Shown: positions 1 through 61,889 of the stretch, piece by piece
How the letters are laid out: each line of letters starts with the position of its first letter
Numbering within the stretch: position 1 is the first letter of the stretch
NCBI GenBank assembly: GCA_017882325.1
Contig: JADGPQ010000001.1
Span: 541-64,540 of the forward strand
Direction: 5' to 3'
Length of the DNA stretch: 64,000 bases
From: Thermoleophilia bacterium
Lineage (GTDB): Bacteria > Actinomycetota > Thermoleophilia > UBA2241
Position numbers and translations under genes: made by a program
Notes under the pieces: generated by a model
Told to the model about the DNA's origin: nothing
What the model saw: the letters and a program-made list of their open reading frames with translations, nothing else
Databases searched by the model: none

Positions 1-272
1 CCACCGGTCCGGGCGCCTCTCGAGAATACTTGACCTGTCTTGGACCACCTGCAATCATGTTCGCATCATGGATGGGCTGTTCCGCATCGCGGGCACTCTC
101 GCAGCGGGCGACCTTGCTGCCGGGGGAGTCACGAGCGCGCACGGCCGGAGCGACAAAGCGTTGCCGGGAGCTAGACGCCACCGTCGCCGGGCTCTGTCAC
201 TCGAGCTCGACCAGCCGACGGCGACCCCCGCTTTGACGAGCGGATTCGACTTCATGCGAGAGGAGAGCTGCG

Positions 273-1067
273 ATGGAACGTGAGATCTGGAGCCTCGAGA
301 GGATGCGCGGTCTGTTCGATCTGGCCGGCAAGGTCGCGATCGTCACCGGCGGATCCGGCGCCTTTGGCCACGCCGCCGCCAAGGGCCTCGCCGCCTTCGG
401 CGCTGACGTCGTCATCACGAGTCGCCGCCTTGAGAAACTCGAGACGGCGGCGGCCGACATCGGCGCGGCGGGGACCAAGGTGCTGCCGATCTCGTGCGAC
501 GCCACCGACGCCGACAGCGTCGAAGCCATGGTGCAGAAGACCGTCGACGAGTTCGGAAAGGTCGACATCCTCGTGTCGGCCGCCGGCCAGGCGAACCGCT
601 TCGCCGCCGAGGAGTTCCCGATCGACGAGTGGCAGAAGGTCATGGATTCGCTGGTCAAGGGCACCTACATCGCCTGCCAGGCCGCCGGCAAGCGGATGAT
701 CGCCCAGGGCGGCGGCAAGATCATCACCGTCGGGTCGGTGCGCGGCGAGCTCGGCCACCCCGGCGGCTACTCCGCCTATGGCACCGCCAAGGGCGCCGTG
801 CACCTGCTCACCAAGCAGCTGGCGACCGAGTGGGCCAAGTACCACATCAACGTCAATTCCATCGCCCCCTGCATCTTCTGGACCCCTCTCACGCAGCAGG
901 TCCTCGACGATCCGGAGCTCTACAAGATCTTCATGCAGCGCATCCCGTGGGGCCGCGCCGCCGATCCGCAGGACTTCATCGGCGCGGCCGTCTATCTCGC
1001 TTCGGCGGCATCCGACTTTGTCACCGGCGACATCCTCATGGTCGACGGCGGCAGCACGGCCGGCTGA
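273..1067 (+). CDS. short-chain dehydrogenase/reductase (SDR) family oxidoreductase
   Basis: N-terminal Rossmann motif VTGGSGAFG and SDR-like catalytic region (YSAYGTAKGAV); GAGAGGAGAG RBS 6 nt upstream of ATG 273. Confidence 0.85.
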   Translation: MEREIWSLERMRGLFDLAGKVAIVTGGSGAFGHAAAKGLAAFGADVVITSRRLEKLETAAADIGAAGTKVLPISCDATDADSVEAMVQKTVDEFGKVDILVSAAGQANRFAAEEFPIDEWQKVMDSLVKGTYIACQAAGKRMIAQGGGKIITVGSVRGELGHPGGYSAYGTAKGAVHLLTKQLATEWAKYHINVNSIAPCIFWTPLTQQVLDDPELYKIFMQRIPWGRAADPQDFIGAAVYLASAASDFVTGDILMVDGGSTAG

Positions 1068-1092
1068 TCGCCGCCGACACGGGGGGGCCCAC

Positions 1093-2043
1093 GTGGACAG
1101 TGAACGCGCAGAGCGCGTCGCCGTTATCGGCGGCGGCATGATGGGCACCGGCATCGCCCAGGTCTTCTCTGCCGCCGGCCACCGGGTCGCGCTCCAGGAT
1201 CTCTACGCGGAGGCCCTCGAACGGGCGCCGGGGGCGATCCGCGGCAACCTGAGCCTACTGGCCGAGCGCGGGCTGTTCTCGGCCGACGCCGTCGAGGCGG
1301 CGGTCGGCCGCGTCCGCACGGCCACCGACCTCGCCGACGCGGCGGACGGCGCTGACTTCGTCGTCGAATGCGTCTTCGAAGACCTTGCTCTGAAGCAGGA
1401 CGTCTTCGAGCAGCTGGACGGCGTCTGTCCGCCCGAAACGGTACTGTGCACCAACACCTCGGTGATGAGCATCGCCGAGATCGGCGCCCACACCAGGCAC
1501 AAGGAGCGGGTCGTCGGCACGCACTTCTGGAACCCGCCGTACCTGATACCTCTGGTCGAGGTCGTGCGCACTGAGGACGTCGATGATGCGGTCGTCGAAC
1601 GCACGATGGATCTGCTGCGGAGGGCCGGCAAGCACCCGATCGACTGCAAGAAGGACGTGCCGGGATTCGTTGCCAATCGCCTGCAGCACGCCCTGTGGCG
1701 GGAGGCCATCTCCATCGTGGAGCACGGCATCGCCGACGCCGCGACCGTGGACGAGAGCATCCGCTTCGGCCCGGGTCTTCGCCTGCCCGTCCTGGCGCCC
1801 ATGGAGAACGCGGACATGGTGGGTCTCGACCTGACGCTGGCGATACACGACTACATCTTGCCGCACCTGGAAGCCTCCGGCGAAGCGTCTCCGCTCCTGA
1901 AGCGGAAGGTCGCGGCCGGCGATCTGGGCTTCAAGTCGGGGCGCGGCTTCCAGGAGTGGAGTGAGGGGGCGGCGGACGCCTCGCGGCGCCGGCTGGTGGA
2001 CTATCTGGTGCACGTGCTGGGCGACCCCGCCCGCGGTCTCTGA
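1093..2043 (+). CDS. 3-hydroxyacyl-CoA dehydrogenase family protein (L-carnitine-dehydrogenase-like clade)
   Basis: VAVIGGGMMGTG NAD motif, HFWNPPYLIPLVEV and GFVANRLQHALWREA motifs typical of HBD/LcdH family; ~316 aa; GTG start 1093 (alt ATG 1138). Confidence 0.8.
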   Translation: MDSERAERVAVIGGGMMGTGIAQVFSAAGHRVALQDLYAEALERAPGAIRGNLSLLAERGLFSADAVEAAVGRVRTATDLADAADGADFVVECVFEDLALKQDVFEQLDGVCPPETVLCTNTSVMSIAEIGAHTRHKERVVGTHFWNPPYLIPLVEVVRTEDVDDAVVERTMDLLRRAGKHPIDCKKDVPGFVANRLQHALWREAISIVEHGIADAATVDESIRFGPGLRLPVLAPMENADMVGLDLTLAIHDYILPHLEASGEASPLLKRKVAAGDLGFKSGRGFQEWSEGAADASRRRLVDYLVHVLGDPARGL

Positions 2044-2062
2044 CGCCGGGACGTGCCGGGCA

Positions 2063-2830
2063 GTGACGGAGAAGAGGGCAGTGGCAGAGCGGCGTGACGG
2101 GGTACAGGTGTTGTCACGCGCCGCTCAGATGCTGCGCCGTCTGGCGGCCGAACCGGACGGCCTGACGTCGATCGAACTCGCCGATCGCGTGGGACTGCCA
2201 CGGTCCACAGCCTATCGCATCGTCGGCACCTTGTGCCAGGAGGGCCTGATGCGCGTCCTGCCCTCCGGCAAGCTGCGCATCGGGGCCGGCCTCATGGGCA
2301 TCGCGGCTGCCGGCCGGCGCGACCTGCGTCACGAGGCGGCCCCGTACCTCGAGCGTCTCTCTCACGAGCTCGACGAGACCGTCGAGCTCGTCGTCCTCGA
2401 CGGTGACGAGGCGCTCTTCACGAACCAGTTCGTGTCGTCGCGCTCGCTGCGCGTTGTTGCCGAGGTCGGTGACAGGTTTCCCCTGCACTGCACCGCGTGC
2501 GGCAAGGCGTTGCTCTCGGAGCTTCCGCACGCCGAGGCCGAACGGCTGGTGCCCGCGAAGCTCGAGCCCTTCACGCCGCACACCAACGTCAATCGCGGGG
2601 AGCTCCTCAGGGAACTGGACCTGGTCCGTGCGACCGGAGTGGCGTACGACCATCAGGAGCACAGCCTGGGGATCTCGGCCGTCGGGGCCGCGATCCGCGA
2701 CGCGGCAGGCGCAAGTGCGGCCGTCACCGTGGTCATGCCGGCGGCGCGCCTCGAAGGCAACGAGGCGCACGTGGCGGCCGCCCTCCTGCGTGTCCGCGAC
2801 GATATCCAACGCGCTCTCAACGGCGACTGA
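2063..2830 (+). CDS. IclR family transcriptional regulator
   Basis: N-terminal wHTH (VQVLSRAAQMLRRL...LTSIELADRVGLPRSTAYRIV) plus C-terminal IclR effector domain; start uncertain (GTG 2063). Confidence 0.8.
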   Translation: MTEKRAVAERRDGVQVLSRAAQMLRRLAAEPDGLTSIELADRVGLPRSTAYRIVGTLCQEGLMRVLPSGKLRIGAGLMGIAAAGRRDLRHEAAPYLERLSHELDETVELVVLDGDEALFTNQFVSSRSLRVVAEVGDRFPLHCTACGKALLSELPHAEAERLVPAKLEPFTPHTNVNRGELLRELDLVRATGVAYDHQEHSLGISAVGAAIRDAAGASAAVTVVMPAARLEGNEAHVAAALLRVRDDIQRALNGD

Positions 2831-2961
2831 CGTTGTCGCCTCGTCAACGGCGGCAAGTCTTGACAGCGGCTTCTCGGGGCGAGTAGCGTATCCACGATAC
2901 GGCAAGTCAGTTCCACAATACGGACAGTGCGCCGACCGATCGACTACCCTCTGGAGGAGCT

Positions 2962-3777
2962 ATGGATCAACAGCCAAACGATCCGGGGAACGGCCTCGAG
3001 TTCTACGACCTGAGCGCGACCTTCGGCCACAACGCGCCTCTGTGGCCGTACTTCGAGGACGTCAAGATCGAGCGCATGCATTACCACGCCAAGTCCGGCG
3101 TGCTCTCTCAGAAGATCACCACCGTGATGCACTGCACCACGCATGCCGATGCGCCGGCGCATGTCATCGAGGGCACTGAGTTCACCGACCAGGTGCCCCT
3201 CTACAAGTACTTCGGCCCGGCCGTCGTCGTTTCGATCCCCAAGACCGAGAACTGGGCGCCTATCACGCGTGAGGATCTCGAGAAGGCCACACCCAAGATC
3301 CAGCCCGGCGACCTCGTGATCATCAACTGCGGCTGGCACAAGTACTACAGCGACTCGCAGAAGTACTTCGCCTACTCGCCCGGCCTTGTGCCGAGCGCCG
3401 TCGAGTACCTGCTCGAAGTGGGCGCCAAGGGCGTCGGCGTCGATCAGCAGGCGCTTGACCACCCGCTGGCCACCGCCATCGGCATGCACGGCCCCGGGCC
3501 GCTGCTCCCCGCCGTGGTCAAAGAGTACGAGGCGCTGAAGGGCCACCCCATCCAGGATGACTTCCCCGACTGGGAGCCCTGCCACCGTCTGATCCTCGGC
3601 AACGGCATGGTGGGCTTCGAGAACGTGTGCGGCGCCGACATCGACAAGGTCACCGGCAAGCGCGTCACGATCGCCGCCTTCCCGATCCGCTGGGAAAAGG
3701 GCGACGGTTCGATCGTACGCGTGGTCGCCATCGTCGATCCCAAGGGCGAGTTCCGCATCCCGACCGGGAAGGAGTGA
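2962..3777 (+). CDS. cyclase family protein (kynurenine formamidase-like fold)
   Basis: HxGTHxDxPxH-like motif (MHCTTHADAPAHV) characteristic of PF04199 cyclases. Confidence 0.7.
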   Translation: MDQQPNDPGNGLEFYDLSATFGHNAPLWPYFEDVKIERMHYHAKSGVLSQKITTVMHCTTHADAPAHVIEGTEFTDQVPLYKYFGPAVVVSIPKTENWAPITREDLEKATPKIQPGDLVIINCGWHKYYSDSQKYFAYSPGLVPSAVEYLLEVGAKGVGVDQQALDHPLATAIGMHGPGPLLPAVVKEYEALKGHPIQDDFPDWEPCHRLILGNGMVGFENVCGADIDKVTGKRVTIAAFPIRWEKGDGSIVRVVAIVDPKGEFRIPTGKE

Positions 3778-3779
3778 CC

Positions 3780-4130
3780 ATGGAAGTCACGCGCTACGAC
3801 GAGGCCCCGCCGTACGAGGCCCCCAAGCACCACGAGTGTTTCGGCCTGCGTCTCCAGGGCTTCGAGGTCAGCAAGACGCGCAACTTCTGGATGGGCCTCT
3901 CGCACTTCCTGCCCGGCGGCGGCGCCTTCGAGGACGCGACGCCGGTCGAGAAGGTATACCTGGTGCTCGAGGGCGAAGTCACGGTCATCACTCCCGAGGG
4001 CGAGGTCACCCTGAAGCGCATGGACTCTTGCTACCTCGCCCCCAACGAGTCCCGCTCGATCGAGAACCGCACCAACTCACCCGCCTCGATGCTCGTCGCC
4101 ATCCCCTACCCGGAGCCCCGCGAGGGCTGA
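3780..4130 (+). CDS. cupin domain protein
   Basis: small beta-barrel cupin-like sequence (VYLVLEGEVTVITPEGEVTLKRMDSCYL); ATG 3780 two nt after upstream stop. Confidence 0.6.
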   Translation: MEVTRYDEAPPYEAPKHHECFGLRLQGFEVSKTRNFWMGLSHFLPGGGAFEDATPVEKVYLVLEGEVTVITPEGEVTLKRMDSCYLAPNESRSIENRTNSPASMLVAIPYPEPREG

Positions 4131-4295
4131 TGCGGGTCTCCAGGACCTCCGTCCTGGCCCCCACGGCGATGGCGCATCCACAGGCGCTAGACGGTCGCGA
4201 TAGGGACGCGCGGCGGCTCAAGAGCCGCCGCGCGTCCCGCCGCGGCCCGCAGCCTCCCAGCGGTCTCGCGACTTGCGCGAGCCCCCGGTCGTCCG

Positions 4296-5240
4296 GTGGC
4301 GATGGCGTCGCCTGAACGCATATGCGTCGTCGGGGCAGGTCTCATGGGTCACGGCATCGCGCAGGTCTTCGCCTGCGCTGGTCACCCCGTGGCCGTGCAC
4401 GACCCCGTCCCAGAGGCGCTGGCGACGGTCCACTCGCGTGTGGCCGCGAATCTCGCGCGCCTCGGCCTGCGTGACGATGCGCTCGGGCGCATCAGCGTGC
4501 ACGAGGATCTCGCCGACGCGCTGGAGGGCGCCGCGTTCGCCTTCGAGGCGGCGCCCGAGGACGTGACCCTGAAAGTGCGGCTCGTGGAGGAGATCACCTC
4601 CATCGCGCCTCCCGGCGTCGTCGTGGCCAGCAACACGTCGTCGATGCCGGTGGCCGTGTACACGCCGAGGGCGGTGGGCGCCGACCGCGTGATCGGCACG
4701 CACTTCTGGAACCCGCCGTATCTCATCCCGCTCGTCGAGGTGGTGCAGGGCGAGCAGACGTCCACCGGGACGGTGGCGAGGACGATGGACGTCCTCCGCG
4801 CTGCCGGGAAGCTTCCCGTGCACGTCCGCAAGGATGTCCCCGGCTTCGTCGCCAACCGCCTGCAGCACGCCCTGTGGCGCGAGGCCATGTCGATCGTCCA
4901 GCACGGTGTCGCCGACGCCGAGACAGTGGACCTGTGCGTCAAGAACAGCTTCGGACTGAGGCTCGCGGTGATGGGCCCCCTCGAGACCGCCGACCTCGGC
5001 GGCCTCGACCTCGCCCTGAACATCCACGAGCAGATCCTGCCGTTCATCGATCGCACACCCGGTCCGCTGCAGATCCTGCGCGACAAAGTCGCCGCCGGCG
5101 AGCTCGGCATGAAGACAGGGCAGGGTTTCCTGCCTTGGACCGAGGAGACGGCCGCGGCCGCCCACGCGCGGCTCGCCGACCACCTGATCGCCGTGCTTGC
5201 GGCCGGGAACGCTCCGCCCGAAGCGCCAACCACGACCTAA
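4296..5240 (+). CDS. 3-hydroxyacyl-CoA dehydrogenase family protein (second paralogue)
   Basis: ICVVGAGLMGHGIAQ NAD motif, HFWNPPYLIPLVEVV, GFVANRLQHALWREA; paralogue of 1093-2043. Confidence 0.8.
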   Translation: MAMASPERICVVGAGLMGHGIAQVFACAGHPVAVHDPVPEALATVHSRVAANLARLGLRDDALGRISVHEDLADALEGAAFAFEAAPEDVTLKVRLVEEITSIAPPGVVVASNTSSMPVAVYTPRAVGADRVIGTHFWNPPYLIPLVEVVQGEQTSTGTVARTMDVLRAAGKLPVHVRKDVPGFVANRLQHALWREAMSIVQHGVADAETVDLCVKNSFGLRLAVMGPLETADLGGLDLALNIHEQILPFIDRTPGPLQILRDKVAAGELGMKTGQGFLPWTEETAAAAHARLADHLIAVLAAGNAPPEAPTTT

Positions 5241-5262
5241 ACGACCCCCGAGGAGCCGCCCA

Positions 5263-6087
5263 ATGCCGAATCCCATCATCACCGCCGCGCTCACCGGCCC
5301 CGTGGCGACGAAGGCCGACAACCCCGGGATGCCCGGCACCGTGGCAGAGATCGCCGCGGACGCCAAAGCCGCCTACGACGCCGGCGCGGCCGTCATCCAC
5401 ATCCACCTGCGCGACGACGAAGGCAGCATGACCGTCGACCTGGACGTGGCGCGGCGCACCGTCGAGGCGGTGCGCGCCGTGTGCCCCGGCATCGTGCAGC
5501 TCTCCACCGGCGGTCTGGCCTTCACGTACGAAGACCGCATGAGGATGGTCGAGGCCAAGCCGGCCATGGCGACGCTCAACCCCTGTACGATGACGTTCGG
5601 CGCGGCCGAGTTCCGCAACCCGCCCAAACAGATGATGGAGCTGGCGGCCCGCATGATCGAGCTCGGGGTCAAACCCGAGGTCGAGGTCTACGACACCGGT
5701 CATCTCGAGATGATGCTGTACCTCGTGCACAAGGGGCTGCTCGTCGAGCCACTGCAGGTCTCGTTCGTGATGGGCGTGCGCGGCGGCATGAAGGGTGACC
5801 CGACCCTGCTCGCCTACCTCGTGCGCGAGCTCCCGGAGGGCACGAGCTGGCAGGTCATCGCCGTCGCCAAGGCCAACCTGCCGATGACCACCATTGGCCT
5901 GGCCATGGGGGGCAATGCGCGCACCGGCATGGAAGACACGCTGACCCTGGAGAAAGGCGTGCCGGCTGCGTCCAACGCCCAGCTTGTCGAGCGCCTCGTG
6001 AGGATCGCGCGCTCGCTGCAGCAGGAACCCGCGGGGGTGGCCGAGGTCGTCGAGCGGCTCAAGCTGTCAGCGGAGCTTGTCGGCTAA
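5263..6087 (+). CDS. beta-keto acid cleavage enzyme (BKACE / 3-keto-5-aminohexanoate cleavage enzyme family, DUF849)
   Basis: MPNPIITAALTGP...IHIHLRDDEG...LSTGG typical Kce/BKACE N-terminus and TIM-barrel core; AGGAG RBS 8 nt upstream. Confidence 0.8.
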   Translation: MPNPIITAALTGPVATKADNPGMPGTVAEIAADAKAAYDAGAAVIHIHLRDDEGSMTVDLDVARRTVEAVRAVCPGIVQLSTGGLAFTYEDRMRMVEAKPAMATLNPCTMTFGAAEFRNPPKQMMELAARMIELGVKPEVEVYDTGHLEMMLYLVHKGLLVEPLQVSFVMGVRGGMKGDPTLLAYLVRELPEGTSWQVIAVAKANLPMTTIGLAMGGNARTGMEDTLTLEKGVPAASNAQLVERLVRIARSLQQEPAGVAEVVERLKLSAELVG

Positions 6088-6420
6088 GCATGAGCGTCGG
6101 TGCTGCCCTCCTGCGTTGTTCGAGGGCGTCTGCGCGAGTCTTGCGCGCGGGACAAGAAGGCTTGACAGCGATGCTGGCGGCTATATGATGCCCGTATCGT
6201 GGGAGGGAATGTCCGCATGGTGGATAGCACCGGAGGTGCGAAGGCGCCGTGACGACAGGACCTGACCGGGCTGGGAAGCCCGCGTCGTCAGTGCGATCTC
6301 CATCGCGCACTCCGGCGCGTCGGACCCGCTCCGGCAAGGAGCCCAAGGGCGAGTTCTCGTTGGTCTGTGCGGCTCGCAGCTGAGCCGCTGGTGACCGCGG
6401 GACCAAAGCAAGGAGGCGGC

Positions 6421-7824
6421 ATGAGTTCGGACGACCGCAAGTCAAGCGAGGCGTCGGAAGGCGCCGGGATCGTCAAGACCCCGGTCACGCGACGCGATTT
6501 CCTCAAGGTTGCCGGCGTGGCGGGCGCGGCGCTCGGCATCGGCGGCGCCGGCAGCGTGCTGGCCGCCTGCGGCAGCGGCAGCAGCGGTGGCGGCAGCAGC
6601 AGTAGCGCTACCGGCCGCACCATCAAGGTCGGTTTCGTCTCGCCGCTCACCGGCCCGCTGGCCACGTTCGGCGAGACCGACCAGTGGATCGTCGACCAGT
6701 GGAAGGCGGCGGTCAAGGACGGCGTCAAGTGCGGCGACGGCCAGGTGCACCCGATCGAGATCATCGTGAAGGACTCGCAGTCCGACACGAACCGTGCCGC
6801 CACCGTGGCCGGCGACCTGGTCACCAACGACGGCATCGACGTCATGATGGTCGCCTCTACGCCCGACACCGTGAACCCCGTCGCCGACCAGGCGGAAGCC
6901 CTGCAGGTCCCCTGCGTCTCCAACGACTGTCCGTGGCAGCCCTACTACTTCGGCCGCGGCGCCACGCCCGACAAGCCCTTCAAGTGGACCTACCACGCGT
7001 TCTGGGGCCTCGAGGACGTGACGACGGTCTTCACGGGGATGTGGAACCAGCTCAACACGAACAAGCTCGTCGGCGCGATGTGGCCGAACGACGCCGACGG
7101 TCTGGGCTGGGCCGACCCCAAGACGGGCCAGCCGCCCCTGCTCAAGCAGGCGGGCTACAAGTTCGTCGACGGCGGCCGTTTCCCGGACGGCACCGAGGAC
7201 TACAGCTCGCAGATCGGCAAGTTCAAGGCCGCCGGCTGTCAGATCCTCAGCGGCGTCTTCATCCCGCCGGACTTCGTGAACTTCTGGAAGCAGTCGTACC
7301 AGCAGGGGTTCAAGCCCGTGGCCGCGACGGTCGGCAAGGCACTCCTCTTCCCGGCAGAGCTTGAGGCGATCGGGTCCATCGGCTACGGCCTCACCACCGA
7401 GTGCTGGTGGTCGCCGTGGCACCCGTTCAAGTCATCGCTCAGCGGCCAGACCTGTCAGCAGCTGGCGGATGCCTGGACCGCGGACACCAAGAAGGAGTGG
7501 ACGCAGCCGCTGCTGCACTACGCCGTGTTCGAGGTCGTGGTCGACGCCCTCAAGCGCACGACCAACGTCGACGACAAGCAGGTCATCCTGGACGCCATCA
7601 AGGCCACGACCCTCGACACGATCCAGGGCAAGATCACGTGGACTGCCGGGGCGCCGCTGAACCCGGTCCCCAACGTCTGCCGCACCGTGCTCGTCGGCGG
7701 CATGTGGACCAAGGGCTCGACGTACCCCTTCGAGCTCCTGCTCGTCGACACGGCCCACGCCAAGGAGGCGCCGTTCGACGTCACGATCCCGACCAACGGC
7801 AAGCTCGCCCCGATGAAGTACTGA
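6421..7824 (+). CDS. ABC transporter substrate-binding lipoprotein (branched-chain amino acid/amide LivK-like family) with Tat signal
   Basis: RRDFLKVAGVAGAALGIGGAGSVLAAC twin-arginine signal plus lipobox; periplasmic binding protein type I fold; AAGGAGG RBS. Confidence 0.8.
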   Translation: MSSDDRKSSEASEGAGIVKTPVTRRDFLKVAGVAGAALGIGGAGSVLAACGSGSSGGGSSSSATGRTIKVGFVSPLTGPLATFGETDQWIVDQWKAAVKDGVKCGDGQVHPIEIIVKDSQSDTNRAATVAGDLVTNDGIDVMMVASTPDTVNPVADQAEALQVPCVSNDCPWQPYYFGRGATPDKPFKWTYHAFWGLEDVTTVFTGMWNQLNTNKLVGAMWPNDADGLGWADPKTGQPPLLKQAGYKFVDGGRFPDGTEDYSSQIGKFKAAGCQILSGVFIPPDFVNFWKQSYQQGFKPVAATVGKALLFPAELEAIGSIGYGLTTECWWSPWHPFKSSLSGQTCQQLADAWTADTKKEWTQPLLHYAVFEVVVDALKRTTNVDDKQVILDAIKATTLDTIQGKITWTAGAPLNPVPNVCRTVLVGGMWTKGSTYPFELLLVDTAHAKEAPFDVTIPTNGKLAPMKY

Positions 7825-7901
7825 GAGAGGAAACCGGACCCTTTGCCCAGCAATGTCAGATCACTCGAGGAGGTCTCGGTGACGCAAGGCGGTGAAGACT
7901 C

Positions 7902-8627
7902 ATGACCGTAGTGCTCGAGACCACGGGCCTGATGAAATCCTTCGGCGGCGTGCAGGTCATCGACGACCTGAGCGTGCAGCTGAACGATGGCGAAGCTCTG
8001 GGCATCGTCGGGCCGAACGGCGCCGGCAAGACCACGTTGTTCAACCTCATCACCGGCGTGTATCGGCCCGACGCGGGTCGGGTCACGTTCAAGGAGAAGG
8101 ACATCACCCATCTCGCGCGGCAGGACCGCTGCCGCGAGGGCATCGGCCGCACGTTCCAGATCCCCAAGCCGTTCGCCGACATGAGCGTCTTCGAGAACGT
8201 GCTGGTCTGCGCGGCCTACGGGCGGAGCATGAGCGAGCGCGCCAGCTACGCGCGCTGCGTGGAGACGATGGAGCTCACCAAGCTCTCCACCAAAGCCAAC
8301 AAGCAGGCAGGCGCTTTGCCACTACTCGACCGCAAACGCCTGGAGCTGGCCCGGGCGCTGGCCGGCGACCCCAGTGTGCTCTTGCTGGACGAGGTCGCCG
8401 GCGGGCTCACGGAGAGCGAGGTCGAGGAGCTTATCGAGACGATCAAAGACCTGCACCGCGAGGGCATCTCGATCATCTGGATCGAGCACATCGTCCACGC
8501 CCTGCTGGCAGTGGTCGGTCGCATCGTGGCGATCAGCTTCGGCCGCAATCTCATCGAAGGCGACCCCAACGAAGTCATGTGCAGCGACGAGGTCCAGGCC
8601 TGCTACATGGGGGGGACACCGGTATGA
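7902..8627 (+). CDS. livG: ABC transporter ATP-binding protein (LivG-like)
   Basis: Walker A GPNGAGKTT, LSGGQ-like signature, Walker B LLLDEVAGGL. Confidence 0.85.
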   Translation: MTVVLETTGLMKSFGGVQVIDDLSVQLNDGEALGIVGPNGAGKTTLFNLITGVYRPDAGRVTFKEKDITHLARQDRCREGIGRTFQIPKPFADMSVFENVLVCAAYGRSMSERASYARCVETMELTKLSTKANKQAGALPLLDRKRLELARALAGDPSVLLLDEVAGGLTESEVEELIETIKDLHREGISIIWIEHIVHALLAVVGRIVAISFGRNLIEGDPNEVMCSDEVQACYMGGTPV

Positions 8628-9322
8628 GCGTGCTCGAGCTCCAGGAGGTCGACGTCTTCTACGGCGACTTCCAGGCCCTCTTCAAAGTCTCGTTCAAGGT
8701 CGAAGAGGGACAGACCTTCGCCTGCATCGGCGCCAACGGTGGCGGCAAGTCCACGCTCCTGAGAACGATCGCCGGGCTCCAGCGTCCCTCGTCGGGCCAG
8801 ATCTTCTTCCACGGTGAGCCGGTCGACAAGCACCCCGCACACGACCGCGTCGGCATGGGCATCGCGCTCGTGCCCGAGGGGCGCCGCGTCTTCCCGAGCC
8901 TAACCGTCTTTGAGAACCTGCAGATCGGCGCCTACGGCGGTCGCAAGGGCGACTGGAACACCGACTCGGTCATGGAGCTCTTCCCGCTCCTGAAGCCGCT
9001 TGTCAAGCGCCAGGCGTCGAGCCTCTCCGGCGGCGAGCAGCAGGCCCTGGCCATCGGGCGCGCCTTGATGGCCAACCCGCACCTCCTGCTGCTCGACGAA
9101 GTCTCTCTGGGCCTCGCGCCCGTGGTCATCAAGCGCATCTACGAGGCCATGGTGCACCTCGTCGACACGGGCACCACGATCCTGGTCGTCGAACAGGACG
9201 TGCAGCACGTCCTCACCGTCGCCGATCACGTCGCCTGCTTCCTCGAAGGCCGCATCAGCCTCGAGGGCAAGCCAAGCGATCTGAGCTCTGAAGCGATCAC
9301 TGCAGCCTACTTCGGGATGTGA
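8624..9322 (+). CDS. livF: ABC transporter ATP-binding protein (LivF-like)
   Basis: Walker A GANGGGKST, signature LSGGEQQ, LLLDEVSLGLAP; ATGA overlap with upstream gene. Confidence 0.85.
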   Translation: MSVLELQEVDVFYGDFQALFKVSFKVEEGQTFACIGANGGGKSTLLRTIAGLQRPSSGQIFFHGEPVDKHPAHDRVGMGIALVPEGRRVFPSLTVFENLQIGAYGGRKGDWNTDSVMELFPLLKPLVKRQASSLSGGEQQALAIGRALMANPHLLLLDEVSLGLAPVVIKRIYEAMVHLVDTGTTILVVEQDVQHVLTVADHVACFLEGRISLEGKPSDLSSEAITAAYFGM

Positions 9323-9326
9323 CGGT

Positions 9327-10199
9327 ATGGATTGGGCCAACGTAGCGATTCAAGGCATTCTCCTGGGCGGGCTGTACGCGCTGTTCGCGACCGGTCTTGC
9401 CCTCGTGTTCGGCGTCATGCGCATGGTCAACTTGGCGCACGGCGACCTCGGCATCCTGGCGGCGTTCGTCGCCCTGTTCCTCGTCCAGTCGTTCCACATC
9501 GGTGTCTTGTGGTCGGGACTCCTGACCATCGTCATCATGTTCGTCGTGGGTTATCTCCTGCAGCGCGGGTTGCTCAACTTCACCTTGGGCAGCGACGACA
9601 CGCGTCCCATCGTGGTCACGTTCGGCCTCTCCATCATCATCCAGAATGGCCTCATCATGTGGTTCTCGGCCGACTCGCAGGGCCTGGACGCCGGCAAGAT
9701 CGAGAACATCAGCATCCGCATCAGCGACAAGCTGTCGATCGGGTGGTTCCCGCTGCTCGTCTTCATCACATCTATCGTGGTCATCGCCTTGCTGCAGACC
9801 TTCCTCAACCGGACCAAACTGGGGCGCGCCTTCAGGGCCACATCGGATGACCGTGAAGCGGCCGAGCTGATGGGCATCAACAACCGTCACATCTACGGCC
9901 TGGCCATGGCCATCGCCTTGGCCATCGTCGCCCTGGCCGGCATCCTGCTCGCGGTGCGCACGACCTTCGACCCCACGCAGGGTCCGTTCCGGCTCATCTA
10001 TGCCTTCGAGGCTGTGATCATGGGCGGCATGGGGTCCATCTGGGGGACGCTCATCGGTGGCATCGTCCTCGGCCTGTCCCAGACGCTCGGGTCCCAGGCC
10101 TTCGGCTCCGGCTGGGGCCTCCTGGTGGGCCACCTGGTCTTCCTCACCGTGCTGGCGGTCCGGCCGAGCGGCTTCTTCGCGAAGACGGTGACGGCATGA
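9327..10199 (+). CDS. livH: branched-chain amino acid ABC transporter permease (LivH-like)
   Basis: multi-TM permease typical of LivH family (GLALVFGVMRMVNLAHGDL). Confidence 0.8.
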   Translation: MDWANVAIQGILLGGLYALFATGLALVFGVMRMVNLAHGDLGILAAFVALFLVQSFHIGVLWSGLLTIVIMFVVGYLLQRGLLNFTLGSDDTRPIVVTFGLSIIIQNGLIMWFSADSQGLDAGKIENISIRISDKLSIGWFPLLVFITSIVVIALLQTFLNRTKLGRAFRATSDDREAAELMGINNRHIYGLAMAIALAIVALAGILLAVRTTFDPTQGPFRLIYAFEAVIMGGMGSIWGTLIGGIVLGLSQTLGSQAFGSGWGLLVGHLVFLTVLAVRPSGFFAKTVTA

Positions 10200-11254
10200 G
10201 CGCGCAGGACTTCAGCGTCGCGCGCTCCACGCGCATGCACCGCTACGTGCTCATCATGGGAGTGCTCATCGTGGCCGCGCTCGCCAGCTTCCCGTTCTGG
10301 GCCCAGGTCAGCTTCCTACGTACCATGGTCACGTTCTTCACGCTGGTCGCGCTGGCCCAGATGTGGAACCTGCTCGGTGGGTACGCCGGCATGATCTCCG
10401 TCGGCCAGCAGGCATACCTCGGCCTCGGAGCGTACGGCCTCTGGCTCATGGGTGACGTCTTCCACATCCATCCGTTCGTGTCCGTGATCTTGGCCGGCGG
10501 TCTCGCGCTGCTTGTGGCGCTGCCGGTCGCGCCGCTGATCTTCCGCCTGCGCGGCGGCTACTTCGCCATCGGCACCTGGGTCGTGGCCGAGGTGGTCCGC
10601 CTCGTCGTGGCCAATATCCAGGCGACGGGCGGCGGGTCCGGCAAGACCGTCATCTCCGCCGCCCGCCTACCGATCGACACGCGCATCAACGGCACATACC
10701 TGCTCGCGCTGTTCGTCGCCGTGGGCTCGATCCTGCTGGTCTACTTCCTGCTGCGTTCGCGCCTCGGGCTCGCCCTCACGGCGATCCGCGACAACGAGCT
10801 GGCGGCGCAGAGCTCCGGCGTCAACATCTTCCGTTCGAAGCTGTACGTCTATCTCATCTCCGCGTTCGGTTGCGGCGTTGTGGGCGCGGTAGTCGCCATG
10901 AACCTCCTGCGCATCCAACCCGCCGCGGCATTCAGCATCAACTGGACGGCCTATGCTCTTTTCATCGTGGTGATCGGCGGGTTCGGCTCGATCGAAGGCC
11001 CGATCATCGGCGCGGTGATCTACTTCACCCTGCTGCAGAGTCTCAGCCAGTACGGTACGACGTACATGTTGCTGCTCGGCGTGATCGCCGTCGCCATGGC
11101 GACGAAGGCGCCTCGCGGCATCTGGGGCATCGTGACCAAGCGCTGGAACGTCCACCTGTTCCCGGTGCGCCGCCGGCTCGTCCTGGAAGAGCCGCCGGAG
11201 CCGCAGGGTACGACTGGCGCAGGCGCGGCCGGGCCGGTCGCCGAGGCGAGCTGA
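10196..11254 (+). CDS. livM: branched-chain amino acid ABC transporter permease (LivM-like)
   Basis: hydrophobic multi-TM protein, 4-nt overlap with livH-like gene. Confidence 0.8.
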   Translation: MSAQDFSVARSTRMHRYVLIMGVLIVAALASFPFWAQVSFLRTMVTFFTLVALAQMWNLLGGYAGMISVGQQAYLGLGAYGLWLMGDVFHIHPFVSVILAGGLALLVALPVAPLIFRLRGGYFAIGTWVVAEVVRLVVANIQATGGGSGKTVISAARLPIDTRINGTYLLALFVAVGSILLVYFLLRSRLGLALTAIRDNELAAQSSGVNIFRSKLYVYLISAFGCGVVGAVVAMNLLRIQPAAAFSINWTAYALFIVVIGGFGSIEGPIIGAVIYFTLLQSLSQYGTTYMLLLGVIAVAMATKAPRGIWGIVTKRWNVHLFPVRRRLVLEEPPEPQGTTGAGAAGPVAEAS

Positions 11255-11261
11255 GCGGTCC

Positions 11262-12101
11262 GTGCCGGACATGGCAGAAGAGGCTCCGCGATCCGGCGGC
11301 AACGGCGATGGTGCGACGGTGACCGAACCAGGCCGGGAGGCAGAGCAGGAGCAGCGAAGCGGCGTCCAGGTTCTCGCCAGGGCCGCGACGATCCTGCGGC
11401 TGCTCGCGGCTGATTCATCCGGCGGTCTCACCTTCAGCGAGCTGGTCGCACGCGCAGGCCTGCCACGCACGACGGTACATCGCATCCGGTACGCGCTGGA
11501 GGAAGAGGGATTCGTCTGCGCCGACGAGGCCACCGGCCGCCTTCACCTGGGGCCGGGTCTTCTCCAGCTGGCGGTGGCGAGCCGGCGCGACCTGCCGACG
11601 GTCGTGAGCCCGTACCTCGAGCGCCTGTCGAGGGAGCTCAACGAGACCGTCGACCTCGGCGTGCTCGACGGCATGCACGTGCTCTTCATCGCCCAGCATC
11701 CCGCGCCGCAGCGCTCGCTCATGGTAGTCTCTCGCGTCGGCGCCCGCTTCCCGGCCTTCTGCACGTCCAACGGCAAGGTCCTTCTGGCGCAGCTGCCCCC
11801 TGACGAGCTCAAGCGGCGTCTGCCCAAGAGGCTCGAGACGCCCTCTCAGCACACGCCGGTCTCGCGCGACGATCTGCTGCGCGAGCTCGAGGAAGTCCGC
11901 CGCACGGGCCTCGCCTTCGATCGGGAAGAGCATCACGCCGGCATCTGTGGGGCCGGCGTGGCCATCACCGACCTCGACGGAAGCGTGGCGGCGATCTCCG
12001 TGCCGATGCCCGCCGCCCGCTTCTACGCGGATGCGGATGCCATCTCCGCGACTCTCCTCCGCGTGCGCGACGAGATCCAGATCGCCCTGCAGGGTGCCTG
12101 A
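11262..12101 (+). CDS. IclR family transcriptional regulator
   Basis: VQVLARAATILRLLAA...LTFSELVARAGLPRTTVHRI HTH and IclR C-terminal domain. Confidence 0.8.
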   Translation: MPDMAEEAPRSGGNGDGATVTEPGREAEQEQRSGVQVLARAATILRLLAADSSGGLTFSELVARAGLPRTTVHRIRYALEEEGFVCADEATGRLHLGPGLLQLAVASRRDLPTVVSPYLERLSRELNETVDLGVLDGMHVLFIAQHPAPQRSLMVVSRVGARFPAFCTSNGKVLLAQLPPDELKRRLPKRLETPSQHTPVSRDDLLRELEEVRRTGLAFDREEHHAGICGAGVAITDLDGSVAAISVPMPAARFYADADAISATLLRVRDEIQIALQGA

Positions 12102-12117
12102 GCCAGGACGACCGCTG

Positions 12118-12669
12118 GTGGTCGCCGTTGTCGGCAGCCCCCGGCCGCACGGCAACACCGCGCTGCTCGTCGATGTCGCGCACGAGGAGCTGGGCCGTCG
12201 CGGCATCCGTGTCGACAAGATCGTGCTGAGCGAGCGCCGCATGGCCGGCTGTCTGGGCCACGACGACTGCGCCGACCGGCGCGCGTGCCCGCACGGCGAC
12301 GATGCCGCCGACATCCTCGACGCGGTGTATGCGGCCGACGGGCTGATCCTCGCGACGCCGGTGTACTACGAAAACGTCTCCGCGCAGATGAAAGCCTTCA
12401 TGGATCGCAACGTCTTTCGGTACGCGCACGACGAGTGGTTGCGGGCGAAGGTGGTGGGCCTCGTGGCGATCACTGCGGAGACGGGCCTGGACGAGACACT
12501 GGCGGCGCTGCGCCGCTACGTCGCGCTCTCCACCGACGGGGAGGTGCCGATCTTCAGCGTGAGAGGGTACGCCGACGCGGCGGGGTCCGCGGCGAAGCAG
12601 CCGGAGCTCCTCGCCGCCGCCCGTCGGCTTGCGAGCGATCTGGCCGCGGCGCTGCTGTCCGGCGCCTGA
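12118..12669 (+). CDS. flavodoxin-like fold NAD(P)H-dependent FMN reductase-type protein with Cys-rich insert
   Basis: VVAVVGSPRPHGNT...LILATPVYYENVSAQMKAFMDR typical NADPH-dependent FMN reductase/iron-sulfur flavoprotein-like; CxxxxxCxxxxxC cluster; start codon uncertain (GTG 12118). Confidence 0.6.
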   Translation: MVAVVGSPRPHGNTALLVDVAHEELGRRGIRVDKIVLSERRMAGCLGHDDCADRRACPHGDDAADILDAVYAADGLILATPVYYENVSAQMKAFMDRNVFRYAHDEWLRAKVVGLVAITAETGLDETLAALRRYVALSTDGEVPIFSVRGYADAAGSAAKQPELLAAARRLASDLAAALLSGA

Positions 12670-12676
12670 GGCTCGC

Positions 12677-13288
12677 CTAACGTGTCCGGATGACTCGCGC
12701 CTCGGTGACCACGGAGCCCACCGCGAGGTCGTGCGGTTCGCAGGGGAGCTCGTCCACGAGCTGGGCCTCGAACGCAAGCGCCACCCACGGGATGCCCGGA
12801 CGCGTGCGCGGCAGATAGGAATCGTAGAAGCCGCCGCCGTAGCCGCAGCGCCCTCCAGCGGCGTCGAACGCCGCACCCGGTACGACGACCACGTCCATAC
12901 GCTCCGGAGGCACCTCCTCGAGACCCTCGCGCGGCTCTGGGACGCCCCAGGCGCTGGGCACCAGGTCAGCCGCCGGGTCGGCTATCCGATACGCGGCCAT
13001 GTGACGGGGTCTCAGCACGCGCGGCAAGCAGACGGTCTTGCCCTGCTCGAGGGCCCACGACACGAGGGGCTCCGTGTCGACCTCGCTGCGGAACGCGGCG
13101 AAGAGCATGACGGTGCCGGCCTTGTCCAGCTCGGGGAGAGCGGCGGCGCGGGCGCAGACGGCGACGCTGAGCAGGGCGCGTTCCGCGCCCGGCAGGGCGT
13201 CGCGCGCCGCGAGCGCGCGCCGCCGGAACTCCACCTTGGCGCGGGGAATCGCCGGCCGGGATCCCGCATCGCCGCGTCCGTCGGCCAT
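12677..13288 (-). CDS. 5-formyltetrahydrofolate cyclo-ligase
   Basis: MTHFS family motifs (GGRCGYGGGFYD); ends with TAG. Confidence 0.8.
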   Translation of the reverse strand: MADGRGDAGSRPAIPRAKVEFRRRALAARDALPGAERALLSVAVCARAAALPELDKAGTVMLFAAFRSEVDTEPLVSWALEQGKTVCLPRVLRPRHMAAYRIADPAADLVPSAWGVPEPREGLEEVPPERMDVVVVPGAAFDAAGGRCGYGGGFYDSYLPRTRPGIPWVALAFEAQLVDELPCEPHDLAVGSVVTEARVIRTR

Positions 13289-13473
13289 CGATTCGCCCTC
13301 CTCGCGTGAACTGTCTTGACAACGCTTCGGGGGAGGTAACGCAGAGTGCGACCCCCCAGAAGCCTCTCCTTCCTCTATAGTATAAGTGCGCAGACGCCCG
13401 GCGGGCTTCCGGGTCGCGCGCTGAGACGAGAGGGGACCGCTGGCCCAGGGGCCGCGCGGGCGGGAGGACAGGC

Positions 13474-14643
13474 ATGACGCTTCGTTCCCAGGAAGAGATG
13501 ACTCTGGCGACGGTGTTCGCGCGCACCCTCGGCAACGTGATCGCGCTCACGACGGCCGAGGAGAAGCGTGCCTGGCCGACCCCTGCGCAGGTGTTCGAAC
13601 ACACCCCGGACGGCGCCGCAGCACCCGTGGCCCTGCTTCGCCTGCTGCAATTCTCCGTCCTGCCCGAGATCCTCGGGGCCAGCGCCGGCCCCGCCATCTA
13701 CCTGGCGAGCAAACGGTTCAGCGGCGAGCTCGGCATCCACTCCATCCAGGGCCTCAAAGACTGGTTCCGGCACATGAGCCTCGGAGACCTTGAGGTGGAG
13801 CTCGACGAAGAGCGGGTGCTGGTCAAGCTGGGTCATTGCCTGAGCTGCCAGCGGCTGCCGGCCGGCGGCACCCCCGTCTGCGACTTCGAACGGGGCCTCG
13901 TCGACGGCGTGCTGGAGGGCATCACCGGCAGGGAGGTCGTCACCAAGGAGACGCTCTGCTGGGGCCTCGGTGACACGGTGTGCCAGTTCGAGGGCTACAA
14001 CGGCGAGCACGCGGGCTATCTCTATCGCGAGAACGGGTTCCACCCCGACGCGCAGCGACGCCTGCTGACGCAGCTCGCGGACCAGTCCGAAGTGGCGCTG
14101 GACAACCTGCGCCTCATCAGCGAACGCCGCGAGCACGAGACGCACGATCCTCTCACCGGGCTCGTGAACTTCCGCCAGCTCCGCGAGCGCGCGGCCTTTG
14201 AGCTGGCGCGCGCCGGGCGTCACGGCCACACGGTGGCGTTCGCCATGCTCGACCTCGACGATTTCCGCGCGGTCAATGAAGAGGCCGGGCGCGAGGGCGG
14301 AGACGAGGTCCTGTGCCACTGGGCCGCCGCCCTCACCGCGCAGCTGCGGAACTGCGACCTGGTGTGCCGCTATGGCGCCGACGAGTTCCTGCTGGTGCTG
14401 CCGGAGACAGCCGAACAGCAGGCCGACGCGGCTCTGGAGCGCGTGCTGGGCACGATGCAGCAGCTGGCCGTCGAGACCGGCGGCCGCACGTTCGCGCTCA
14501 CTGCTTCGGCCGGCGTCGCGAGCTTCCCCGGCGATGGCCGGACGGTCGAAGATCTGGTCGCCAAGGCCGCCACCACCATGTACACGGCCCGGGCCGCAGG
14601 CGCGGGCCGTGTCGCCTTCTACTCTCGCCCGCCCCGGCGCTGA
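13474..14643 (+). CDS. diguanylate cyclase with N-terminal V4R (4-vinyl reductase) sensor domain; GGDEF variant GADEF
   Basis: C-terminal GGDEF domain (RYGADEFLLVL, preceding LTGLVNFRQL); N-terminal Cys-containing V4R-like domain (CLSCQRL...CDFERGLVDG). Confidence 0.75.
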   Translation: MTLRSQEEMTLATVFARTLGNVIALTTAEEKRAWPTPAQVFEHTPDGAAAPVALLRLLQFSVLPEILGASAGPAIYLASKRFSGELGIHSIQGLKDWFRHMSLGDLEVELDEERVLVKLGHCLSCQRLPAGGTPVCDFERGLVDGVLEGITGREVVTKETLCWGLGDTVCQFEGYNGEHAGYLYRENGFHPDAQRRLLTQLADQSEVALDNLRLISERREHETHDPLTGLVNFRQLRERAAFELARAGRHGHTVAFAMLDLDDFRAVNEEAGREGGDEVLCHWAAALTAQLRNCDLVCRYGADEFLLVLPETAEQQADAALERVLGTMQQLAVETGGRTFALTASAGVASFPGDGRTVEDLVAKAATTMYTARAAGAGRVAFYSRPPRR

Positions 14644-30954: not shown

Positions 30955-31045
30955 GCCGGCATTGTATAGGACGCCGCCCGGACTGCCGACGTTCTTGCGC
31001 TCGCGGTCTGTCCAACTCCGGCGTCGGAAGGGTAGAGTGTCGGGG

Positions 31046-32311: not shown

Positions 32312-32492
32312 GGCCGGAGCTTGTGCGCCGTCCCGGCGCCGTCGTCCGTCCGGCCCTTTCCGCCCCTTGACCAAATTGACCCTCTCGAATACGCACCTGT
32401 AGAATCCATCACAAAGCTCCGCTTCGTCGTGCCACCCGGCACAGGCTCCCCCCAGTGAGACGCGCGGAAGAGTGGAAACAAAGGAGGACGCG

Positions 32493-34981: not shown

Positions 34982-35013
34982 ACCAACCTCCGACGACACA
35001 CGGAAGGGATGCC

Positions 35014-61879: not shown

Positions 61880-61889
61880 CATGGCGTGC

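Follow-up and report, generated by a model that had tools for sequence, protein, structure and literature searches.

What does the group of catabolic genes near the left end of a 64,000-nucleotide stretch of DNA from a Thermoleophilia bacterium (Actinomycetota; assembly GCA_017882325.1, contig JADGPQ010000001.1) consume? This stretch, hereafter the window, carries at positions 273-12101 an island encoding a short-chain dehydrogenase/reductase (SDR), two dehydrogenases of the 3-hydroxyacyl-CoA dehydrogenase family (HBD1 and HBD2), a cyclase-family protein, a small cupin, a BKACE, a Liv-type ABC importer and two IclR regulators. The original prediction, made from the letters of the DNA, read these genes as an island for the uptake and degradation of a beta-hydroxy or amino acid. 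Our analysis points to a different substrate: the island very probably mediates the uptake and oxygen-independent reductive catabolism of phloroglucinol (1,3,5-trihydroxybenzene), a breakdown product of plant polyphenols. It is most likely a further case of an already described pathway and not a new one, because that pathway is already built into annotation tools such as CAMPER and its genes have been reported to be expressed by metagenome-assembled genomes (MAGs) of 13 phyla in peat microcosms.

The anaerobic degradation of phloroglucinol by Clostridium scatologenes has been reconstituted with four enzymes (Zhou et al., mBio 2023, PMC10470551): an SDR acting as phloroglucinol reductase (PGR, CSCA_1082), a Mn enzyme of the 'cyclase' family acting as dihydrophloroglucinol cyclohydrolase (DPGC, CSCA_1083), a 3-hydroxyacyl-CoA-dehydrogenase-like (S)-3-hydroxy-5-oxohexanoate dehydrogenase that works on the free acid, the triacetate-forming dehydrogenase (TfD, CSCA_1091), and a BKACE acting as triacetate acetoacetate-lyase (TAL, CSCA_1088). 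DPGC is the slowest step in vitro, with a kcat of ~1 s-1 vs 22-395 s-1 for the adjoining steps (PMC10470551). All four enzyme families are contiguous and on one strand in the island. Gene content, homology, diagnostic residues, synteny and the conserved promoter layout are established by the analysis; all enzymatic activities, the transporter ligand, the pairing of regulators with operators and any role of the cupin are inferred. The proposed scheme is as follows. The phenol would be imported by the binding protein, a Tat lipoprotein, together with its Liv-type ABC transporter, and the SDR, as PGR, would reduce it with NADPH to dihydrophloroglucinol. The cyclase, as Mn-dependent DPGC, would open the ring by retro-Claisen hydrolysis to (S)-3-hydroxy-5-oxohexanoate, and HBD1 and/or HBD2, as TfD, would oxidise this acid with NAD+ to 3,5-dioxohexanoate (triacetate). 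The BKACE, as TAL, would then move the acetoacetyl part of triacetate onto acetyl-CoA, yielding acetoacetate and acetoacetyl-CoA, which would enter central metabolism via enzymes encoded outside the island. A pyrogallol-phloroglucinol transhydroxylase, encoded in close relatives and probably just left of the window, would channel pyrogallol into the same route.

The first line of evidence for this scheme is the company that these genes keep. A set of 80 loci from species-representative genomes was searched by tblastn with all window proteins; 53 of them have enough flank for counts within 4 kb and 44 for counts within 8.5 kb. Within 4 kb of the cyclase ortholog, there is a cupin gene in 48 of the 53 loci, an SDR gene in 50/53 and an HBD gene in 48/53, and all three occur together in 44/53 loci from several phyla. 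Within 8.5 kb, ABC ATPases are found in 28 and IclR in 32 of the 44 loci. Because these neighbours recur near cyclase orthologs in related loci, the grouping is not due to chance. The neighbourhood comparison that had been proposed as a check on the original prediction has therefore revealed strong co-conservation. The closest relative, L001, is an uncultured Thermoleophilia MAG that is collinear with the window at ~80-84% nucleotide identity. A search with the C. scatologenes DPGC (CsDPGC) further identified a Firmicute locus, L081, in which the DPGC is 83% identical to CsDPGC and the gene order is Cupin_2, SDR, 3HCDH, Cyclase, BKACE, CoA-transferase A/B, permease and MFS (major facilitator superfamily). 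Identities between window and L081 proteins are 47% for the cupin, 43% for the SDR, 51% for HBD1 and 37% for both the cyclase and the BKACE. The locus and its relatives derive from MAGs of Danish soil, palsa, other soil or groundwater, and MAGs are the sole source from which the host organism is known.

The second line of evidence comes from diagnostic residues, in the first place those of the cyclase. This candidate DPGC is 38% identical to CsDPGC over 290 columns (E = 3e-50), a value that, like the identities to the C. scatologenes TfD (CsTfD) given below, is an underestimate because both reference sequences were taken from the supplement of PMC10470551 and carry optical character recognition noise. 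Its W28 and Y30 align with W20 and Y22 of CsDPGC, the Trp20/Tyr22 pair used by the authors to set DPGC apart from isatin hydrolase, which has Ile/Leu there (PMC10470551). The metal-ligand motifs H57-x3-H61-x-D63, WEPCH208 and E220 (VGFEN) are retained, and 16 family members all share the same substrate and metal residues. The protein is 65-74% identical to cyclases of Chloroflexota, Desulfobacterota, Acidobacteriota, Bacillota, Binatia and many Actinomycetota, in a family that corresponds to the short DPGCs (261-291 aa) in the UniRef50_A5U375 set of PMC10470551. This short form, which in the window is devoid of a ~40-residue insertion of CsDPGC, is listed among the predicted DPGCs of that study for Ktedonobacteraceae, Mycobacterium and the known phloroglucinol degrader Rubrivivax gelatinosus. 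Kynurenine formamidase and isatin hydrolase were rejected as identities for the cyclase, because its matches to solved structures are weak (24-41 bits) and its substrate residues are different.

Both dehydrogenases exhibit the hallmarks of a TfD. They belong to the 3HCDH family, HBD1 being 53% and HBD2 41% identical to CsTfD, and the CoA contacts of true hydroxybutyryl-CoA dehydrogenases are gone from both: Lys56 is lost, and a TfD-specific GLRL insertion in place of GAN-HP replaces the CoA (pantetheine)-binding Asn221. The catalytic Ser, His and Asn are kept (NTS, THFWNPP, FVANRLQH), and the motifs THFWNPPYLIPLVEVV and FVANRLQHALWREA, together with a C-terminal extension, are common to HBD1, HBD2 and CsTfD. 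In Rossmann folds, an Asp at the end of beta-2 points to NAD+; such an Asp is present in both proteins (LQD, VHD), which suggests that they use NAD+. The top NCBIfam match of HBD2, the FHMPC dehydrogenase of vitamin B6 catabolism, was rejected on its score (227 bits vs a cut-off of 500) and on its context, which does not fit. The presence of two such genes is unusual, since two TfD copies are found in just one other locus of 44 and each close relative has one. The two proteins are indeed paralogs (50% identical), as originally proposed. Window positions 4154-5248, which carry HBD2, are missing from the otherwise collinear L001, and L003, L004 and L006 carry HBD2 (68-73% identical) without HBD1. 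Since close relatives carry one or the other, HBD1 and HBD2 are probably redundant isozymes and not enzymes of two different steps, and they look like genes joined by recombination. A perfect inverted repeat specific to this genome is found on the border of the segment missing from L001, within a cupin-HBD2 spacer that has a predicted RNA fold of -98 kcal/mol (z = -4.5) and is just ~58 bp long in L003, L004 and L006. This hairpin may have been left behind by recombination, or it may act as a terminator despite having no T-tract.

The SDR is 43% identical to the PGR ortholog of L081, whose C terminus (GGYWAN) is the one encoded by the CsPGR reverse primer (PMC10470551 supplement). In a rough neighbour-joining tree, the cluster-linked SDRs form two sister clades. 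PDB entry 5g4k and the Firmicute PGR are in one, and the other unites the window SDR with those of its close relatives, of Neomoorella and of other loci; gluconate 5-dehydrogenase 1vl8 falls outside both. The peptide SDLTEWMFDPESAVY is common to 5g4k and to the mass-spectrometry peptides of CsPGR, and we therefore take 5g4k to be a PGR (Conradt et al. 2016); a literature search for PDB 5G4K/5G4L found nothing. After beta-2, the window SDR has ITSRR (T-S-R-R), to be compared with the T-x-R-S/N phosphate-binding motif of characterised PGRs, and this motif, viewed in the light of general knowledge on SDRs, suggests that it uses NADPH. None of its NCBIfam matches reaches an equivalog cut-off; a single glucose 1-dehydrogenase model, of subfamily level, is narrowly exceeded (218.8 vs 215 bits).

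The BKACE is a clear member of its family (PF05853, 300 bits vs a cut-off of 24.8, profile positions 3-274, with the HxH and E-D zinc/catalytic residues), and an alignment with Kce (2y7d) shows that the HxH, STGG, EVEVY and R-x3-ED motifs are kept and that Glu14 is replaced by Val14. The position of Glu14 is occupied in the C. scatologenes enzyme (CsTAL) by Trp16 (PMC10470551), which is confirmed by the CsTAL peptide TIITVAPTGAWPK. The protein falls under the cut-off of every NCBIfam BKACE equivalog, including the curated one for 3-oxoadipate transferase, an assignment that was rejected, and it is 37% identical to the CsTAL-type BKACE of L081. Our comparison reveals that, in different phyla, this cluster contains BKACEs of three distinct lineages, with 31-44% identity between lineages. 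In 26 actinobacterial loci, the window among them, the TAL position is taken by type A, the actinobacterial lineage (TAALTGP[IV]ATK). Type B, which is CsTAL-like (TGAWP), is found in three loci plus L081, and type C (~310 aa) in eight loci, with scores to NF053538 ('3,5-dioxohexanoate:acetyl-CoA acetone transferase') of 383-416 bits that narrowly miss the cut-off of 430. The loci in which this diversity was noted are L009, L015, L016, L024, L026, L028, L035, L045, L046, L059 and L068. For both the SDR and the BKACE, the proposal that the variants are isofunctional is made because of their position in a conserved cluster and not because of orthology.

A further clue to the substrate lies upstream of the cluster. 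Pyrogallol hydroxytransferase converts pyrogallol to phloroglucinol, and homologs of both its subunits are encoded directly upstream of the cluster in L001 (positions 1-7000), along with MobA/MobB, a third IclR and a second SDR. The L001 fragments match the large subunit 4v4c_A with 327 bits (E = 9e-97) and the small subunit 4v4c_B with 230 bits (E = 4e-67); the genes in this region are split between reading frames, pointing to indel errors in a long-read MAG. Homologs of this pyrogallol-phloroglucinol transhydroxylase are also present in the upstream regions of L003, L004 and L006, and altogether ≤10 kb from the cluster in 15 of the 80 loci, from Thermoleophilia, Anaerolineales, Desulfobacterota, Acidobacteriota and Neomoorella. 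Since the window start corresponds to position 7001 of L001, the transhydroxylase genes would sit just off the left edge. Likewise, the island probably extends left of window position 1, because the collinear L001 has another SDR, an IclR and the molybdenum transhydroxylase ahead of it.

Several observations weigh against a phloroglucinol pathway. The cyclase, SDR and BKACE are only moderately similar to characterised enzymes, with identities of 38%, 43% (to the PGR ortholog) and 37%, respectively. Where Kce has Glu14 and CsTAL has Trp, the window BKACE has Val; its score to NF053538, the 3,5-dioxohexanoate transferase model, is 172 bits vs a cut-off of 430. A BKACE is detected near only 25 of the 44 clusters, and its absence within 8.5 kb in ~40% of the clusters hints at an alternative last step there. 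The SDR is closer to the Thermotoga gluconate 5-dehydrogenase structure 1vl8 (197 bits) than to 5g4k (160 bits), and its placement as PGR rests on an unbootstrapped neighbour-joining tree and on synteny. A PDB search with the binding protein gave only relatives with E ~1e-5, from which no ligand can be inferred. The transhydroxylase was not found inside the 64-kb window, and neither the island nor the scanned rest of the window revealed a CoA-transferase or thiolase gene, unlike the Firmicute cluster. In favour of the pathway, the residues expected of a DPGC and of a TfD are in place and the clustering is conserved, and the PGR and TAL assignments are supported by synteny.

Some of these points would fit a pathway in which the same enzymes act on a related 1,3-dioxygenated ring and not on phloroglucinol itself, the cupin, SDR and BKACE lineages adapting it to a methylated or acylated phloroglucinol, phloroglucinol carboxylate, resorcinol/1,3-cyclohexanedione or hydroxyhydroquinone. 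The window SDR clade is separate from the proven PGRs, the BKACE lineage is separate as well and differs at the specificity position, the DPGC is of the short type and a conserved cupin is present. However, clade-II SDR and cupin also occur with a CsTAL-type (Trp) BKACE, for example in the Neomoorella locus L068, and because of this co-occurrence the SDR and BKACE variants appear to be interchangeable within one cluster type. Moreover, the DPGC substrate residues are invariant across the family, the transhydroxylase adjacent to the cluster in relatives produces phloroglucinol itself, and a cupin gene also belongs to the C. scatologenes cluster, whose action on phloroglucinol has been demonstrated. 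We thus regard a related ring as an unlikely substrate.

The view taken in the original prediction is that an aliphatic beta-hydroxy or amino acid, whether carnitine-like, derived from beta-lysine or other, is imported and degraded by an LcdH-like dehydrogenase and the BKACE, the SDR, cyclase and cupin being side activities. Much in it has stood up: this is a catabolic island with its own importer and regulators, and its logic is sound, namely that an HBD oxidises a free 3-hydroxy acid to a beta-keto acid, which is then cleaved by the BKACE with acetyl-CoA. Neither of the two findings named at the time as telling against it was made, the BKACE catalytic residues being intact and the genes co-conserved. 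The pairing of an HBD-family dehydrogenase with a BKACE is a hallmark of the carnitine and lysine-fermentation routes, Kce is the best NCBIfam match of the BKACE, and Liv-type transporters classically carry amino acids. The specific analogies nevertheless fail. The Kce match (276 bits) is under the cut-off of 382 and the Glu14 that binds the 5-amino group is a Val here, so that a Kce assignment was rejected, as was one as L-carnitine dehydrogenase (NF005471 and NF005716, with cut-offs of 414 and 592), to which HBD1 scores 131 and 149 bits and HBD2 152 and 173 bits. Both HBDs are closest to TfD, Pfam scans detect no aminomutase, aminotransferase or betaine-related gene in the island, and the most conserved cluster genes across phyla are those for the cyclase, cupin and SDR, not those for the BKACE or transporter. 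The SDR and cyclase, rightly noticed but listed as accessory, match the first two steps of the published pathway (PMC10470551), and by this route the hydroxy acid would be formed inside the cell by these two enzymes; the imported substrate would not be an 'unidentified hydroxy or amino acid'. Import of an aliphatic acid hence appears highly improbable. Even less credible is a deoxyribonate-type catabolism of sugar acids, in which the SDR would oxidise a 2-deoxy/3-hydroxy sugar acid to a 3-keto acid to be cleaved by the BKACE with acetyl-CoA. A deoxyribonate pathway based on a BKACE is known (bioRxiv 10.1101/205583), and the best NCBIfam and PDB matches of the SDR are gluconate 5-dehydrogenase and KduD-like enzymes. 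But apart from the marginal glucose 1-dehydrogenase match the SDR scores under the equivalog cut-offs, Pfam scans detect no sugar-acid dehydratase, kinase or lactonase gene in the island, and the DPGC-type cyclase, TfD-type dehydrogenases and transhydroxylase neighbourhood would be left unexplained.

Viewed as a phloroglucinol pathway, the island shows important similarities to and differences from known systems. It shares with the C. scatologenes cluster the four enzyme families and their inferred chemistry, the DPGC substrate and metal residues, TfD-type dehydrogenases, a BKACE without the amino-binding Glu, a small Cupin_2 gene, and a dedicated transporter and regulator. It differs in the size of its DPGC (271 aa vs 312 aa), in having its SDR in the sister clade, a BKACE of another lineage (Val vs Trp16) and two TfD paralogs, and in its transport and regulation, which involve a Liv-type ABC importer with a Tat lipoprotein and IclR regulators, compared with an MFS transporter in C. 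scatologenes. Unlike in C. scatologenes, there are no CoA-transferase, thiolase or butyrate genes in the cluster, and the host is a high-GC actinobacterium. The island also resembles the predicted Mycobacterium clusters, represented by Rv1714-Rv1718 of M. tuberculosis, in its short DPGC of UniRef50_A5U375 and in a cupin matching the Rv1717 model, although the window cupin is under the NF050094 equivalog cut-off (114 < 175). We take Rv1714 to be an SDR, Rv1715 FadB3, Rv1716 a cyclase, Rv1718 a BKACE and Rv1719 an IclR regulator. Rv1714-Rv1718 are predicted to form a single operon (PMC2724278). The feeder enzyme differs as well, being a phloretin hydrolase in the mycobacterial clusters (PMC10470551) and a pyrogallol transhydroxylase in the relatives of the window.

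In the classical Pelobacter acidigallici pathway, a Mo transhydroxylase (PDB 4V4C) is followed by phloroglucinol reduction and ring hydrolysis. Its gene-level counterpart is seen in relatives of the window, where homologs of the transhydroxylase alpha and beta subunits lie beside PGR, DPGC, TfD and BKACE genes; in the 64-kb window itself there is no transhydroxylase, and its probable presence upstream is deduced from collinearity with L001. Finally, the NAD-dependent oxidation of a free 3-hydroxy acid and the Zn-dependent Claisen-type transfer to acetyl-CoA are what the island would have in common with the carnitine (LcdH and dehydrocarnitine cleavage) and lysine (Kce) modules. It is unlike these in missing the equivalog models, in lacking features that bind an amino or trimethylammonium group, and in that its hydroxy acid would be made in the cell from an aromatic ring.

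The small cupin is a nearly universal component of these clusters. Its gene starts 2 nt after the cyclase stop codon. Cupin genes belong to 70 related loci (from L001-L080 and L081), the gene is next to the cyclase in 48 of the 53 loci with sufficient flank, and the Firmicute L081 has it too (47% identical). Its counterpart in C. scatologenes is CSCA_1081, next to PGR, a protein that was detected in the mass-spectrometry data of the PMC10470551 study and is not mentioned in its text. The homologs carry a precomputed Cupin_2 assignment, and both by sequence and by predicted fold the best PDB match is the Mn cupin TM1459; structure prediction and a PDB fold search returned only generic monocupins, TM1459 on top, and no functional lead. 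The four His ligands of TM1459 are replaced, since HSHPWEH in TM1459 is DATPVEK here and H92, the His of motif 2, is an Arg that is invariant in the family. Instead of His ligands, the family conserves Tyr12, His17, Glu57, Asp82/Ser83, Glu90 and Arg92. The cupin may transfer protons without a metal, as a keto-enol tautomerase or epimerase that uses Tyr12, His17, Glu57, Asp82, Glu90 and Arg92, and which, as a guess, could hand the diketo form of dihydrophloroglucinol to the slow DPGC step. It is possible, if somewhat doubtful, that the cupin is an unrecognised fifth functional component of phloroglucinol catabolism, with the actinobacterial BKACE as a third independent TAL lineage and the Liv system as the first ABC importer assigned to a trihydroxybenzene. 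If the cupin does have this role, the beta-galactosidase assignment of Rv1717, which was reported on pNP-galactoside without the operon being considered (PMC7873859), would need revisiting; a beta-galactosidase role is not suggested by the conserved genomic context.

Uptake and regulation appear to be dedicated to the cluster. One operon encodes all parts of a Liv-type (HAAT) importer, namely Peripla_BP_6, two BPD_transp_2 permeases and two ABC ATPases, and Liv-type ABC systems accompany the cluster in many loci of several phyla. The binding protein is predicted to be a receptor for phloroglucinol or a trihydroxybenzene. The two IclR regulators are paralogs (52% identical), and it is the IclR2 type that is most often beside the cyclase in other Actinomycetota (tblastn, 43-55% identity, many loci). 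Each of the three intergenic regions 1-272, 2831-2961 and 6088-6420 has a CTTGAC followed 31 nt downstream by a ~12-bp box and 21 nt further on by a second one (+31, +52). A consensus promoter scan independently found two of the three promoters, and the layout is kept in L001; that of the transporter promoter is also kept, with the same spacing, in L003, L005 and L006. The degenerate single box TCCRCRWNNNGG, a pattern derived from the promoter sites themselves, is not enriched window-wide (15 matches vs 9.3 expected, with 6/100 shuffles reaching 15), and because of this the case for operators is made by the fixed spacing at three promoters and by conservation in relatives. We propose that there would be three transcription units, SDR-HBD1-IclR1, cyclase-cupin(-HBD2-BKACE) and transporter-IclR2, and that the two IclR paralogs probably repress the three promoters via the paired boxes just after the -10.

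Table. Features of the island and its immediate surroundings, in window coordinates.
Feature	Position	Strand	Evidence and details
Promoter/operator upstream of SDR	30-92	+	sigma-70-like TTGACC-17-AATCAT (30-58); boxes TTCGCATCATGG (60-71) and TCCGCATCGCGG (81-92), 21 bp apart
SDR, candidate NADPH-dependent PGR	273-1067	+	Pfam adh_short_C2 190 bits
HBD1, candidate TfD, (S)-3-hydroxy-5-oxohexanoate dehydrogenase, triacetate-forming	1093-2043	+	3HCDH_N 210 bits, 3HCDH
IclR regulator 1	~2081-2830	+	IclR_C 156 bits, HTH_IclR; start uncertain, GTG at 2063 or 2081
Promoter/operator upstream of cyclase	2859-2923	+	CTTGAC at 2859; boxes TCCACGATACGG (2891-2902) and TCCACAATACGG (2912-2923)
Cyclase-family protein, candidate Mn-dependent DPGC, short type, 271 aa	2962-3777	+	PF04199 115 bits
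Small cupin, 116 aa	3780-4130	+	NCBIfam NF050094 (M. tuberculosis Rv1717 type) 114 bits vs cut-off 175
Perfect 17-bp inverted repeat (hairpin)	4203-4238	+	GGGACGCGCGGCGGCTC / GAGCCGCCGCGCGTCCC, in cupin-HBD2 spacer
HBD2, second TfD-type dehydrogenase (candidate), HBD1 paralog	4296-5240	+	3HCDH_N, 3HCDH
BKACE, candidate 3,5-dioxohexanoate (triacetate):acetyl-CoA acetoacetate-lyase, actinobacterial lineage 'type A'	5263-6087	+	PF05853 300 bits
Promoter/operator upstream of transporter operon	6162-6223	+	TTGACA-16-TATGAT, 11/12 consensus; boxes CCGTATCGTGGG (6192-6203, - strand match) and TCCGCATGGTGG (6212-6223)
Tat-exported lipoprotein substrate-binding protein, Liv type	6421-7824	+	Peripla_BP_6 124 bits, TAT_signal; TRRDFLK and LAAC lipobox
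ABC ATPases	7902-8627 and 8624-9322	+	ABC_tran
LivH/LivM-type permeases	9327-10199 and 10196-11254	+	BPD_transp_2 115 and 114 bits
IclR regulator 2	11262-12101	+	IclR_C 144 bits
FMN_red-type NADPH-dependent FMN reductase-like gene	12094-12669	+	FMN_red 89.5 bits

Since the DNA of the window is high in GC (~68%), reading frames were chosen by third-position GC (GC3), and protein families were then assigned to these frames by Pfam and NCBIfam profile scans. All island genes are on the forward strand within 273-12101. Every gene of the original inventory was found there, and its limits coincide exactly with the first start codon and the last stop codon. An Arg-rich open reading frame (ORF) at 3836-4315 was discarded as spurious, an artefact of GC content, the true gene being the cupin in a different frame; a scan of this ORF's frame, which did not include the cupin frame, gave no Pfam match at E ≤ 0.001. 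Immediately downstream of IclR2, the FMN reductase-like gene is possibly co-transcribed with the island. It is syntenic in L001 (68% identical) and not generally kept with the cluster elsewhere, which makes its membership of the cluster uncertain. A scan of positions 1-13400 detected no intrinsic terminator with a T-tract.

When flavonoids and tannins are degraded without oxygen, phloroglucinol is the hub intermediate, and the identity of its consumers matters for the 'enzyme latch' view of how carbon is stored in peat and wet soils. The locus and its relatives would assign a complete route, tied to pyrogallol transhydroxylase, to Thermoleophilia/Solirubrobacterales, which are abundant, uncultured soil actinobacteria. 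The gains are otherwise modest and consist of better annotation, candidates for an ABC importer and an IclR operator that serve a phenolic, and a conserved cupin.

The wider window contains other genes of interest. Just downstream of the island, at 13474-14643, is a gene for a diguanylate cyclase combining V4R and GGDEF domains; the presumed ligands of V4R domains are small hydrophobic molecules. Two adjacent ORFs (312 and 268 aa) with a strong coding GC3 bias lie in a lower-GC stretch (62-63%) at 42066-43866, without a Pfam match at 1e-5 (both) or at 1e-4 (42066-43004). Anaerobe-type genes surround the island at 30920-39737 and 55098-57650, which fits an oxygen-independent lifestyle of the host. 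They encode a LarC-like nickel insertion protein, a formate-tetrahydrofolate ligase, a NuoE-like protein, a 1055-aa NuoF/GltD-like fusion, and a tungsten-type aldehyde:ferredoxin oxidoreductase with a 4Fe-4S ferredoxin. Lastly, this Thermoleophilia genome has a pyrrolysine system, at 58690-63891 of the window. It comprises pylB (58690-59787; TIGR03910, 442 bits vs a cut-off of 348), pylC (59784-61028; 337 vs 248), pylD (61025-61831; 190 vs 150), a tRNA-Pyl with anticodon CUA (61890-61962) and pylSn (63565-63891; TIGR03912, 126 bits vs a cut-off of 51), and the catalytic pylSc probably lies past the right edge of the window.

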